Of a DNA stretch of 43,716 nucleotides, positions 6,162-24,087 are shown in pieces (within the stretch, counting starts at the first letter, position 1; each line of letters opens with the position of its first letter). The position numbers and the translations under genes are program-made. Under the pieces are notes generated by a model. It was not told the DNA's origin, made no database searches, and saw only the letters and a program-made list of their open reading frames with translations. This stretch comes from a virus: positions 1-43,716 of IMG/VR virus record IMGVR_UViG_3300018476_000018; one strand, 5' to 3'.

Positions 6162-6626
6162 GCGAGAACCCACCCTCCGGCGCGAGCCCCGAAGAATGCG
6201 AGAACCCATCCGCGCGCGCGAGCCCACCGTTGTGCGAGAACCCAAAACCGTGCGCGAGCCCCCGCTCCGGCGAGAACCCTGTTGCACGCGCGAGAGCCCA
6301 CCCCCCGGCGAGAACCCCACCGAGAGCGCGAGCCCCTCCCGATAGCGAGAACCCGGCTGTGTGCGCGAGCCCTATGAACTGCGAGAACCCGATTGAGCGC
6401 GCGAGCCCCTTGTCGGGCGAGAACCCGAATGACTGCGCGAGCCCGCCTTGTCGCGAGAACCCTTCGTGGTGCGCGAGCCCTGCTGTGTCGCGAGAACCGA
6501 ACTGGCTGCGCGAGCCCGCCTGCCGGCGAGAACCCAGCCAACCGCGTGAGCCCTTATGCGCGCGAGAACCCACCGCCACGCGCGAGCCCTCTCGAAAGCG
6601 AGAACCCTGTTGGGTGCGCGAGTCCC
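6162..6626. repeat. Array of 26 direct 10-mers, GCGAGAACCC x13 alternating with GCGCGAGCCC x13, on an 18-bp phase with variable 8-bp spacers.
   Basis: Hand-indexed repeat starts: 6162, 6180, 6198, 6216, 6234, 6252, 6270, 6288, 6308, 6326, 6345, 6363, 6381, 6399, 6417, 6435, 6453, 6471, 6490, 6508, 6526, 6544, 6562, 6580, 6598, 6616. Of 25 intervals, 22 are exactly 18 bp. The array fills the whole gap between convergent genes. Confidence 0.95.
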
Positions 6627-6634
6627 TTGTGTCA

Positions 6635-6862
6635 TCAGCGCGGCGCGTGAAATCCCAGCGCCGGAAACCCGCCGCCGCCGATCGCCAGCGTCACCAGCCA
6701 GATCAGGGCCAAGAGAGCGATGATCAGCAGCCCAAACTTGTCGACCTGGGGCGGGATCGGCAGGCCGATATAGCGCAGCACCCAGAGGACCGCGAGAAAA
6801 ACGCCGGCAATCAACACGATCGCCAGCAATATCCACAATAGCCCGACGATCAGATTGCCCAT
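6635..6862 (-). CDS. Small integral membrane protein (75 aa, two hydrophobic helices).
   Basis: GAGGT lies 6 nt upstream of ATG 6862. Sequence MGNLIVGLLWILLAIVLIAGVFLAVLWVL...FGLLIIALLALIWLVTLAI. The overlapping plus-frame ORF is a charged antisense artefact. Confidence 0.7.
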   Translation of the reverse strand: MGNLIVGLLWILLAIVLIAGVFLAVLWVLRYIGLPIPPQVDKFGLLIIALLALIWLVTLAIGGGGFPALGFHAPR

Positions 6863-6884
6863 CGCTTTACCTCAATAGAGACCC

Positions 6885-7082
6885 GTGATAATGCCCGGCG
6901 AGGATGACCCGAACGAGCGAGAGCGCCAGCTAAGGATTGACCTGATGACCATCCAGATCGAGCGCCTGCGACAGGAGATCCGGACCGAGAACCGGAAGTT
7001 CCTGGTACAGGTCCTGATCGGAGTTGCGGCTGCGTTGGGCGTCGGCATTGCGATCGGGCGCTTTGTGCTGTTCCACGCGTGA
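6885..7082 (+). CDS. Coiled-coil protein with a C-terminal transmembrane anchor (63-65 aa).
   Basis: GTG at 6885 or ATG at 6891. ERERQLRIDLMTIQIERLRQEIRTENRK is followed by LVQVLIGVAAALGVGIAIGRFVLF. No clear Shine-Dalgarno. Confidence 0.45.
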   Translation: MIMPGEDDPNERERQLRIDLMTIQIERLRQEIRTENRKFLVQVLIGVAAALGVGIAIGRFVLFHA

Positions 7083-7207
7083 ACCATCTGGGCGCGATCG
7101 AGACGCAACTGACGGTGCTCAAGTGGATGGTGGCGACCGTGGTAGCGCTGCTGCTGCCGGCGCTGTGGCTATTGCTGCGCGTCGCCGGCAAGGTCGGGGC
7201 GCTCTAG
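7079..7207 (+). CDS. 42-aa membrane micro-protein.
   Basis: GTG 7079 overlaps the upstream stop (GTGA). Sequence (M)NHLGAIETQLTVLKWMVATVVALLLPALWLLLRVAGKVGAL. Confidence 0.35.
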   Translation: MNHLGAIETQLTVLKWMVATVVALLLPALWLLLRVAGKVGAL

Positions 7208-7221
7208 TGGATATAAGCGAT

Positions 7222-7305
7222 ATGTTGGTATTTATATGGCACAGCTTTCTTGTGTTTATTTTTCTGGTGTTAGCCGTGGGGTGGATGGGGTGGAAGAATA
7301 ATTAA
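7222..7305 (+). CDS. 27-aa membrane micro-protein in a locally AT-rich segment.
   Basis: Sequence MLVFIWHSFLVFIFLVLAVGWMGWKNN. An alternative GTG start at 7207 overlaps the previous stop. Its stop region converges on the stop of the minus-strand gene at 7302. Confidence 0.3.
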   Translation: MLVFIWHSFLVFIFLVLAVGWMGWKNN

Positions 7306-21621: not shown

Positions 21622-24087
21622 TCAAATCTCGCCGCCATTCGGCCGATCGACCGGCGCGTCGGGACCCGATGTGTAAACCCCAGCCTGATATTTCAGCCTG
21701 ACCTCAAGCGCCGATATCTGCGCCGCCTGCTCGGCCTTCATCCGCTCGATCGCCATCTCGTTATGCGCTTTTAGCTCGGCGACCTGCATGTCGTGCTGCG
21801 CCCGCTCGCGCTCGACGGCAAGCTGCGACTGGGAGCGGATCTGCTCCATCTGCATCTCGGTCTGGGCGTGCCGCGCCTCGATCTGAGCGTCGATCGCCGC
21901 CTTGGCCTGGGCGATCTGCATGTCAGTCTGCGCTTTGGCTTGGGCGGCCTGTATGTCCGCCTGGGCTTTGGCTTGCGCCGCAGCGGCTTGGGGATCGGGC
22001 TTCGGCGGCTGCGGCGGGCCCATCATCGCCGGGTTGGGCGGGCGTGTCGGGTCCTGGAAAAACGGCGTCTTGAAGCCCGCCTGCTGGGTCAGTTGCTCCA
22101 GCACATCGAAGATATTCTTGCCGTAGACCAACGGCCCCTGGAGCCCGCCCTGCTGCTGCACGATCCCGTTTTGGATCTGCAGGATGGTGTTGAGATGCGC
22201 CAGGATCTGGTCGCGGTTGCCGGTGCCGAGGCCGACAGAGACGGTCAGCGGCAGGTCCTCGACCCACTCGCTGGGGTCGACTTTAAGAAAGCCGCCAGTG
22301 ACCTTGATGATGCGCTCGTTCTGTTGGTGGCGCCTGACCAACCGGAAAACGTGCCCGAGCAGTTCCTGCAGGCCGACGGCGAAAATCCGGGCGAACAGCT
22401 CGACCCGCTGGGCGGCGTTGGCTTGCAGCATGGCGATGCCGCTGGCCGTGCTGTTGTTGAGTTGGTCGGCGCTGATCTGCTGGTTGCTTCGGGCAACGCC
22501 GGTCATCACCTCTTGGCTGCGGTCCAAGTATTCGACTAGGGGAAAAGTTTTATCCGCAGTATATGGCACAGTCAGTGGCGCAATACCGCCAATGCGGCGG
22601 GTTCTCACGACCTGGCCCGGACGTAAATTTAACAAATCATCATACGTATTTTCGTTAACTACGTCGTCGCCGACTTCAATTCTCGGCCAATTACTGAGAT
22701 ATCCGTTGTCGAGCATTTGCCGCAGCAAAGTGCTCTTTATTAGCTGAATGTCTTTCGTCAAATCGGCGAGGCTCAGCCCGACCAGTTTGTGCGGCTGTGG
22801 GATCGGGCACAACGCGACAAACGGGATCTCCGGGACGCACTCGCAGTCGGGTTCGCCGCCCTTGGTCAGGATCACATGGCCGCCGGCCGCCGTCATGACC
22901 TTGTAAAGCTCGGTGGTGCTGTCGTCGTCGCCGAGCGCCAGTTGGACGTAACACTCCTCGACCCACATCTCGCGGCCGGCGTCGCGGCGATCGCTGCTGC
23001 GGTAGTCGAGGTCCTCGGAGTGGCGAGCGACCCGCTCGGAATTGTGCTCGGCGCTGTCGTCCCACGGGATCAGATCCAGGCAATCGGTGTCGTAGCCGGC
23101 GTTGACCAGATCGCTGTAGGTGCGCCGGCAACGGTGCGCCAAGAACGGGATTTCGCCACGTTTACTGCGCCGGGAGAACAGCACCTCCTCGGGCGGCACG
23201 TTGGCGATGACGACACGCTCGCGCGGCTTGGTGACGCGCAGGGTGACGTCATAGAACGTCATCTGCTGCGGCACCGGCGGCGCCGGCATGACCCCGGCGG
23301 CGGGTATCATCGGCGGCGGCATCAAACCAGGCGGCGGGCCGGGCGGGCCCATCCCGGGAGGACCGGCGCCGTTCGGCATCATACCCGGCGGCGGACCCAT
23401 CGGACCCATCGGCCCCGGCATCGGCGGAGGGCCCATCGGCGGCATGCCGGGCGGCATCGGCGGAGGGCCCATTGGCCCCATCGGCGGGCCGCCAGGCGGC
23501 AATGGCAGATCCTCGGTGTAGCTGCTCTCTTTGACCAACTCGACGTCGTCCTGATCCAGGAGCGCGTCGTATGTATCGCGGCTGATGTGGGTGAAACTCT
23601 TTGAGATCGTCTCGCTGTCGGTGTCGAACCAGACTTTGACCCAGCCGAGCCGCTCAAGGAGCGCGTCCTTGAACAGGTCGTGCAGCACCATAAAGCCGGA
23701 ATTGTCCCGGTAGAAAATGTGGTTGATGTACTCGGTGGCGATTTCAGCCTGGTCTTCCTGCCCCGGCAGTCGCGGCTCGATTACGCAGATCCGGTCGCTG
23801 GCGGTAAAGATCCGCAGCAATGCCGGCAACACCCACTCGACGGCTTCCAGGACGCTCCGGTAGACGATCTGGCTGCGGCCCGGCACCTCGTTGCCGAATT
23901 TCTCGCCGTTATAGTATTTGATCGCCTCCAACCGCTCCGCGCTCAGCGTCCCGCCGTCCTGCCCGAGCGCGTCCTCCAGTTCCCGCGAGATGACCGCCTT
24001 GACCTCGTCCTCGTCGAGGTCCGGGCCGAGGTCCAGCCCCTGGAAGCTCTGCGAGCGCGCGATCGCGTCGGCGGAATTGCCGTACAT
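21622..24087 (-). CDS. Portal protein (821 aa) with a Pro/Met/Gly-rich insertion and a C-terminal coiled-coil barrel-like tail.
   Basis: Size and position directly after terL. The N-terminal ...LEAIKYYNGEKFGNEVPGRSQIVYRSVLEAVEWVLPALLRIF is portal-like. The C-terminal QAKAQADIQAAQAKAQTDMQIAQAKAAIDAQIEARHAQTEMQMEQ helix recalls P22-type portal barrels. Confidence 0.8.
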   Translation of the reverse strand: MYGNSADAIARSQSFQGLDLGPDLDEDEVKAVISRELEDALGQDGGTLSAERLEAIKYYNGEKFGNEVPGRSQIVYRSVLEAVEWVLPALLRIFTASDRICVIEPRLPGQEDQAEIATEYINHIFYRDNSGFMVLHDLFKDALLERLGWVKVWFDTDSETISKSFTHISRDTYDALLDQDDVELVKESSYTEDLPLPPGGPPMGPMGPPPMPPGMPPMGPPPMPGPMGPMGPPPGMMPNGAGPPGMGPPGPPPGLMPPPMIPAAGVMPAPPVPQQMTFYDVTLRVTKPRERVVIANVPPEEVLFSRRSKRGEIPFLAHRCRRTYSDLVNAGYDTDCLDLIPWDDSAEHNSERVARHSEDLDYRSSDRRDAGREMWVEECYVQLALGDDDSTTELYKVMTAAGGHVILTKGGEPDCECVPEIPFVALCPIPQPHKLVGLSLADLTKDIQLIKSTLLRQMLDNGYLSNWPRIEVGDDVVNENTYDDLLNLRPGQVVRTRRIGGIAPLTVPYTADKTFPLVEYLDRSQEVMTGVARSNQQISADQLNNSTASGIAMLQANAAQRVELFARIFAVGLQELLGHVFRLVRRHQQNERIIKVTGGFLKVDPSEWVEDLPLTVSVGLGTGNRDQILAHLNTILQIQNGIVQQQGGLQGPLVYGKNIFDVLEQLTQQAGFKTPFFQDPTRPPNPAMMGPPQPPKPDPQAAAAQAKAQADIQAAQAKAQTDMQIAQAKAAIDAQIEARHAQTEMQMEQIRSQSQLAVERERAQHDMQVAELKAHNEMAIERMKAEQAAQISALEVRLKYQAGVYTSGPDAPVDRPNGGEI

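Follow-up and report, generated by a model that had tools for sequence, protein, structure and literature searches.

Two alternating 10-nt repeats downstream of a Nop-domain gene very probably form a TIGR-Tas system of the TasA type in a phage genome

What kind of element is formed by 26 short words that alternate strictly between two sequences, are separated by unrelated 8-nt spacers and directly follow a gene in a viral genome? This question was raised by IMG/VR record IMGVR_UViG_3300018476_000018, the whole of which (43,716 nucleotides) was analyzed and is referred to here as the window. A preliminary description had offered a long DNA-binding platform or a transcribed RNA decoy as explanations and knew of no described phage element with this organisation. 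We conclude that the array and the gene upstream of it very probably constitute a TIGR-Tas system of the TasA type, with a dual-repeat array and a nuclease-free effector, in a phage genome of about 43.6 kb. The locus is a member of a known family and not a novel kind of element; the statement that no such phage element had been described is outdated, as the first account of TIGR-Tas, an RNA-guided DNA-targeting system, dates from 2025 and drew mostly on phages (Faure et al. 2025, PMC12045711).

The window opens and closes with the same 123 bases (1-123 and 43594-43716) and is therefore probably a complete genome, about 43.6 kb long, that was assembled as a circle or is terminally redundant. 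Its genes are those of a tailed phage and include a portal protein, large terminase, ejection protein, tail fibre, RusA, a YqaJ-like exonuclease and a Dam-like methylase. The gene of interest, here named tasA, comes after two small HTH genes on the + strand. No integrase was found among the ORFs examined, and the earlier label of a lysogeny module is unproven. Two ORFs in the window, 3730-4146 on the - strand (Cro/YdaS-like HTH) and 3872-4318 on the + strand (HTH_3 repressor-like), overlap on opposite strands, so only one of them can be real over the overlap. The window also holds a 48-bp tandem repeat of 2.6 copies (42446-42571) inside ORF 41896-43008, whose N-terminal 78 residues match a D12-class adenine methyltransferase domain, as well as 33-bp and 36-bp repeats within the portal gene (21898-21975 and 23386-23486). 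These are presumably coding repeats unrelated to the TIGR array.

A motif scan for GCG[A/C]GA[A/G]CCC with at most one mismatch recovered 26 words on the + strand, in strict alternation from 6162 to 6625, a recount that agrees with the 13 plus 13 copies (12 and 10 of them exact) first reported. The word GCGAGAACCC is exact in 12 of its 13 copies, the sole variant being GCGAGAACCG at 6490, and GCGCGAGCCC is exact in 10 of 13, with variants at 6290 (GCGAGAGCCC, better parsed as GCGCGAG+AG+CCC from 6288), 6544 (GCGTGAGCCC) and 6616, so that 22 of the 26 repeats are exact. Rescanning again gave 18 nt for 22 of the 25 start-to-start distances; two of the others are 19 nt and one is 20 nt. TRF returned a 36-bp period at the array. 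A listing of the units bears out the earlier observation that the 8-nt spacers have no mutual similarity. Four of the 13 units carry a 1-2 nt length change or a mutated repeat. Exact matches to GCGMGARCCC number 24 in the whole window, 23 of them within the array, compared with a mean of 1.9 and a maximum of 5 in 100 dinucleotide-preserving shuffles of the window. In our assessment the array is a real and functional-looking element.

The array is non-coding, as had been proposed. ORFs span it in several frames of the GC-rich window and its 18-nt period is a multiple of 3, two features that would suit a repeat protein of 6- or 12-residue period encoded in an open frame across the array. The chance of such a protein is nevertheless close to nil: three indels within the array shift the reading frame, arrays of the same words in relatives contain between 2 and 9 stop codons whichever of the six frames is read, and conservation is at the nucleotide level, with all codon positions alike. 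In addition, the dominant unit length in other clades is 37 nt (24 of the spacings in L051, 1487-2897) or 35 nt rather than 36 (L091, 2565-2917), and these periods exclude a protein-coding repeat.

The identity of the element follows largely from the adjacent gene, whose start codon, ATG at 5287, is supported by the alignment of homologues and whose reading frame is intact, with the family-invariant residues kept.

5287..6150, + strand: tasA, TIGR-associated protein, 287 aa; coiled-coil at the N terminus, Nop-type RNA-binding domain, no nuclease domain

The tasA product scored 176.8 bits (cut-off 100; E 5.7e-52) against NF052498 TIGR_Tas_endo, an NCBIfam equivalog model for the "TIGR-Tas system RNA-guided endonuclease". 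When profile A1 (alignment A1 comprises 28 diverse homologues) was compared with the PDB, it matched TasR (9mty, E 6.9e-19), to which it aligns from residue 145 onward, TasH (E 1.2e-12) and IS621 (E 1e-3). The AlphaFold2 model of the product is all-helical (pLDDT 83), and its best 10-11 Foldseek matches in the PDB were TasH-tigRNA and TasR-tigRNA chains (E 5e-6 to 6e-5, probability 1.0), followed by the IS110-family bridge-RNA recombinases IS621 and ISCro4. The product also matches PHROG 4285 (E 1e-33). Pfam returned only Transposase_20 (aa 112-177), which at 20.6 bits is below the gathering score of 21.3, and detected no HNH, RuvC or DEDD domain; likewise, in alignment A2 nothing in the window protein corresponds to the HNH segment of SpTasH (aa 1 to about 60). 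With no HNH or RuvC domain, the window protein is of the TasA kind, consisting of the Nop domain alone. TasA is the commonest effector type (PMC12045711).

The gene had been described previously as IS110-like and as functionally linked to the array. The link holds, since the gene encodes the cognate Tas protein, and the IS110 resemblance arises because the RNA-binding domain (Transposase_20 or Nop-like) is common to both families and only that domain matches. An IS110-family transposase was rejected, with 23.9 bits against NF033542 (cut-off 140), no DEDD domain and a sub-threshold Transposase_20 match. Several other candidates were dropped once the protein matched TasH and TasR, namely a sopB-sopC-like centromere, iterons or a replication origin, ToxI-like 36-nt antitoxin RNA repeats, IS1111 seekRNA, Chi- or primase-site arrays and packaging-end repeats. 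As a side observation, three homologues (P0044, P0056 and P0118; A1 columns about 185-232) carry an insertion of ~45 residues that contains CxxC...C motifs and immediately follows the helix-hairpin-helix motif; it could be a zinc-ribbon insertion in the Nop domain.

The anatomy of the array was then compared with that of published TIGR arrays, which consist of two distinct alternating repeats of 8-12 nt, termed edge and loop, in units of 36 nt, lie upstream and/or downstream of a Nop-domain Tas gene, start with an edge repeat that is 5'-truncated, and typically have a terminator after them (PMC12045711). Their spacers A and B are short, totalling 16 nt in the Salicola phage system (PMC12045711). 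In the window, the bases AGCCC at 6149-6153 and an 8-nt spacer at 6154-6161 come before the first full word, and the array as a whole therefore begins at 6149 and has 13 units, with copies of GCGCGAGCCC at both flanks. The 13 units of 36 bp given in the preliminary description stand, and its start at 6162 does not, as the truncated edge repeat and the spacer behind it had been missed. Edge and loop were assigned from this truncated first repeat, from homology to the SpTIGR words and from the cassette boundaries in relatives, giving the following features:

6149..6153, + strand: truncated first edge repeat AGCCC, its 5' part missing, as read from the sequence; shares bases with the tasA stop codon TAG (6148-6150); tigRNA 1 is predicted to start here
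6154..6625, + strand: array read as a dual-repeat TIGR array of 13 units, each spacer A (8 nt), loop GCGAGAACCC, spacer B (8 nt), edge GCGCGAGCCC
6616..6625, + strand: terminal edge repeat GCGCGAGTCC, with a degenerate 3' half and an intact 5' half GCGCG, the part needed by tigRNA 13

The alternation of words was described correctly at the outset, and the proposed composite of GCGAGAACCC, eight bases and GCGCGAGCCC is not the functional unit. Published loop repeats have an A-rich centre and edge repeats an extra base pair (PMC12045711); here the loop repeat has the centre AGAA, and C4 and G7 of the edge repeat can pair. Edge and loop are both bound by a symmetric protein dimer, and for this reason the box D and box C ends of the two repeats covary (PMC12045711); in the window both repeat types start with GCG and end with CCC, box C being CCC and not the commonest CCA. 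RNA folding revealed no extended structure beyond shuffled controls (z 0.32), as expected for dual-repeat rather than stem-loop arrays. No intrinsic terminator was found on the + strand after the array, the 3' end of which runs into the 3' end of a convergent gene.

The CRISPR-like appearance remarked on earlier is apt. The objection that 10+8 bp is far too small was mistaken, as two 8-nt spacers together make a 16-nt guide. A CRISPR array proper was rejected, since the repeats are 10 nt long and of two kinds rather than identical repeats of 25-36 nt, a gathering scan of the whole window with Rfam gave no match, and no cas-like genes were present among the ORFs examined. PADLOC also gave no match.

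IMG/VR was scanned with the exact pattern, and the same two words were found arrayed in 11 viral-contig stretches with up to 62 words (about 1.1 kb), several arrays being present on some contigs. Arrays in related phages keep the words and vary in spacers and copy number, a point about which the preliminary description had asked. At five loci of the window's clade, a tasA homologue (64-86% identity) lies directly upstream of the array on the same strand. More than 3,200 homologues of the tasA product, nearly all unnamed, were present in a metagenome protein collection, and alignment A1 was used to fetch 80 viral loci (homologues of 41-77% identity), about 74 of which have an array of ~36-nt period on the strand of the gene. 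The distance from the stop codon to the start of the array is usually no more than about 100 nt, and some loci have a further array upstream. Words across the loci follow a common plan, 10 nt of G-A/C-G/A-N-G-N-N-C/T-C-A/C and then 8 variable positions, with two word types alternating in every locus. The words differ by protein clade, pairs such as GAGAGAACCA/GAACGAGTCA, GAGCGAGCCA/GAGAGCACCA and GATTGAAACA/GAGAGCACCA being examples, and their ends covary: both repeats have GAG...CCA in other clades and both end in CCC in locus L027, with a few clades imperfect (TCA vs CCA). Array anatomy, Tas family membership, lack of a nuclease domain, linkage and orientation of gene and array, and covariation of words with clade are all direct observations.

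In GenBank phage isolates the family is nearly absent. Neither the window protein (tblastn, 1e-5) nor the region 4600-7300 (blastn) matched any GenBank phage, and a more central family member found only distant matches there, including Salicola phage CGphi29, the TasH reference phage. It is rare among 185,579 species-representative genomes, with five matches, all in metagenome-assembled genomes. Separately, a 61.9-kb contig of the window's clade, IMGVR_UViG_3300021404_000012, holds several separate arrays of the same two words (L001 6744-6807; L003 4-69, 1202-1451 and 7717-7781; L004 208-398; L009 963-1321), some on both sides of tasA and others kilobases off, resembling orphan TIGR arrays.

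Sister phages provide a view of how the spacers change. Six loci were compared (L020 3380-4000, L021 3800-4600, L029 2230-2960, L031 3780-4760, L080 650-1380 and L033 3140-3760). In five phages with tasA genes of 95-99% nucleotide identity, many spacer pairs are common, and whole edge-to-edge units have been gained, lost, duplicated and re-ordered, the unit at either end and a 26-nt anchor in mid-array being conserved. The sixth phage, whose tasA is 89-91% identical to those of the five, shares one unit exactly, and for almost all of its other units the best Hamming distance was about 7-9 of 16, compared with a shuffled-control mean of 7.9. As these units are no closer than controls, the repertoire has been replaced and not mutated; sharing of k-mers could not separate spacer turnover from point mutation, and the best-match test did. 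It appears that guide repertoires are renewed as edge-to-edge units are exchanged wholesale, duplicated and reshuffled, and that point mutation is not the source of the change; this result is descriptive, comes from a handful of contigs and does not reveal the mechanism. If true, this turnover bears on how TIGR arrays gain spacers and would favour recombination between co-infecting phages over a dedicated adaptation machine.

These observations also bear on the DNA-binding platform (iteron, centromere or filament) for prophage maintenance that was favoured in the preliminary description. As double-stranded DNA, whether an iteron array, replication origin, partition centromere or nucleoprotein filament, the array would offer 13 composite sites to the adjacent protein, as sopC does to SopB. 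Its strict phasing, its position directly downstream of a gene for a nucleic-acid-binding protein and literature reports of ParB homologues in operon with some TasA loci are compatible with this idea, which we nonetheless regard as very improbable. The neighbour belongs to the Tas Nop-domain family of RNA-binding proteins, and its characterised members carry array-derived RNA, 36 nt in length (PMC12045711). Furthermore, the orientation of the array relative to the gene is kept in about 74 loci, which is expected of a transcript and of which a DNA site would have no need; the spacers are replaced in pairs, as entire edge-to-edge units; none of the genes seen next to the array is of ParA or Rep type; and no homologue of tasA was found among 72,556 plasmids (tblastn at 1e-5). 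A TIGR array that acts through its transcript is the reading that we retain.

How such an array would work can be proposed from published homologues, from which transcription, processing, tandem-spacer DNA targeting and repression are all inferred here. The array would be transcribed from the + strand, probably as one transcript with tasA, given that its first bases lie within the stop codon of that gene. One weak promoter match is a candidate start of this tasA-TIGR transcript, although sigma-70-like matches in the region are no more numerous than chance predicts:

4378..4406, + strand: weak sigma-70-like promoter match (TTGATC, 17-nt spacer, GATAAT; 9/12 positions), upstream of two genes in the same orientation, 4672-4971 (HTH_17) and tasA

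TasA dimers would recognise the conserved ends of both repeat types, the GCG start and CCC end being box D-like and box C-like motifs. The RNAs carried by TasA, TasR and TasH are 36 nt long and extend from the middle of one edge repeat to the middle of the next, as shown for FpTasA, TaTasR and SpTasH. By analogy, the precursor would be cut in the middle of the edge repeat (GCGCG|AGCCC, the position being inferred) into 13 RNAs of about 36 nt, each of the form 5'-AGCCC-spacerA-GCGAGAACCC-spacerB-GCGCG-3'. The predicted length is 36 nt in 10 of the 13, with units 5, 6 and 10 longer:

6149-6184, + strand: predicted tigRNA 1, 36 nt
6185-6220, + strand: predicted tigRNA 2, 36 nt
6221-6256, + strand: predicted tigRNA 3, 36 nt
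6257-6292, + strand: predicted tigRNA 4, 36 nt
6293-6330, + strand: predicted tigRNA 5, 38 nt
6331-6367, + strand: predicted tigRNA 6, 37 nt
6368-6403, + strand: predicted tigRNA 7, 36 nt
6404-6439, + strand: predicted tigRNA 8, 36 nt
6440-6475, + strand: predicted tigRNA 9, 36 nt
6476-6512, + strand: predicted tigRNA 10, 37 nt
6513-6548, + strand: predicted tigRNA 11, 36 nt
6549-6584, + strand: predicted tigRNA 12, 36 nt
6585-6620, + strand: predicted tigRNA 13, 36 nt

In published homologues one spacer pairs with one strand of a half-site and the other with the opposite strand of the adjacent half-site, there is no PAM-like motif, and a TasA RNP bound to its target DNA acts in vivo as a reversible repressor of transcription. 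The two 8-nt spacers of each tigRNA may likewise pair with opposite strands in the adjacent halves of a 16-bp DNA site. Since the window protein has neither HNH nor RuvC, the outcome would be sequence-specific binding and bending of DNA, that is, a block of transcription or replication, and not cleavage. The targets would most likely lie in the host or in competing mobile elements. Neither the 13 guides of the window nor 114 guides from sister arrays matched the whole window above controls when searched in both strand geometries with a gap of 0-2 bp, so that self-regulation, or targeting of this phage by the sampled siblings, is not supported.

Several points fit this picture poorly, namely the lack of a terminator after the array, box C CCC, the imperfect units and F270 of the window protein. 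SpTasH cleaves its own precursor with Y289 and H296; in alignment A2, H296 corresponds to the invariant H277 of the window protein and Y289 to F270. Most of the 28 homologues in alignment A1 have Tyr at this position, with Phe in the close relatives P0002, P0010, P0023 and P0025. The processing tyrosine has therefore been lost in the window's clade, and self-processing may be impaired or may work differently. TaTasR has Trp at the F270 position (HMM alignment), which suggests that the Y/H dyad may not be universal.

The Phe in place of the catalytic tyrosine of the dyad, the imperfection of some units and the failure to find targets in the phage's own genome might instead indicate that the TIGR array is genuine and its RNA has no role in guiding DNA binding here; it could serve as a sponge or decoy, titrating a Tas or Nop-type protein of the host or of a rival, or could be a decaying remnant. 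We consider this very improbable, as the tasA frame and its family-invariant residues are preserved, more than four-fifths of the repeats are exact, a failed target search is the norm in the field for 16-nt guides, and sister phages keep longer arrays, of up to 62 words, which argues for selection. The earlier suggestion of a transcribed multi-site RNA decoy came near the truth as regards transcription, its RNAs being guides and not a decoy in the TIGR-TasA reading. A more tentative proposal, which we think possible but doubtful, is that the clade is a functional variant of dual-repeat TIGR-TasA in which, given F270 and box C CCC, guides would mature through a host RNase or another catalytic residue, and in which guide repertoires would be renewed by the exchange of units.

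In total, the analysis adds an annotated TIGR-TasA locus in an apparently complete phage genome, and a reading of sequence alone recovered a class of element missed by standard CRISPR finders and Rfam. The scientific value of the instance is modest because such arrays had been catalogued in thousands by 2026. The remaining novelty is the clade-specific change from Tyr to Phe, the missing terminator and the array dynamics. As the genome appears complete and sister phages carry different guide sets, the locus could help with two questions, the guide targets of phage TasA and the acquisition of spacers.

Like the sopC and parC centromeres of F and R1 and like iterons, the locus is a phased tandem array beside a gene for a binding protein, whereas those elements act as double-stranded DNA, have no hypervariable paired spacers and are served by ParB, ParR and Rep proteins unrelated to Nop-domain proteins. 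With CRISPR arrays it shares the logic of repeats and spacers, predicted processing to unit guides and the loss and gain of cassettes between related genomes, and it differs in its two alternating 10-nt repeats, in 8-nt spacers that would work in pairs on opposite strands and in having no cas genes, known adaptation machinery or PAM. IS110 and IS1111 elements with bridge RNA or seekRNA have the RNA-binding domain and split short guide segments in common with it; unlike them, the window protein lacks a DEDD/RuvC catalytic domain and does not keep the serine motif, and the window carries many simple units in place of one two-loop bridge RNA and no transposon ends.

The SpTIGR-TasH system of Salicola phage CGphi29 (PDB 9w03/9w04; PMC13421893), which has been characterised by experiment, is closer, with related words (edge AAGCGAGCCA vs GCGCGAGCCC in the window, loop AAGACAACCA vs GCGAGAACCC), spacers of 8+8 nt and a homologous Nop domain with 26% identity over the alignment, in which the processing histidine is conserved. 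SpTasH cuts DNA with an N-terminal HNH nuclease that the window protein does not have, its Y289 is Phe in the window protein, and its array ends in a clear hairpin-plus-T-run terminator not seen in the window. Compared with systems of the FpTasA type, from Flavonifractor plautii (PMC12045711), the window has spacers of 8+8 nt where 9+9 is commoner, box C CCC in place of CCA and no detected terminator. In other respects it resembles them, with a solo Nop-domain protein beside two alternating short repeats, two short spacers per 36-nt unit, a truncated first edge repeat, an array that lies downstream of the gene and in the same orientation, and a phage or metagenomic origin.
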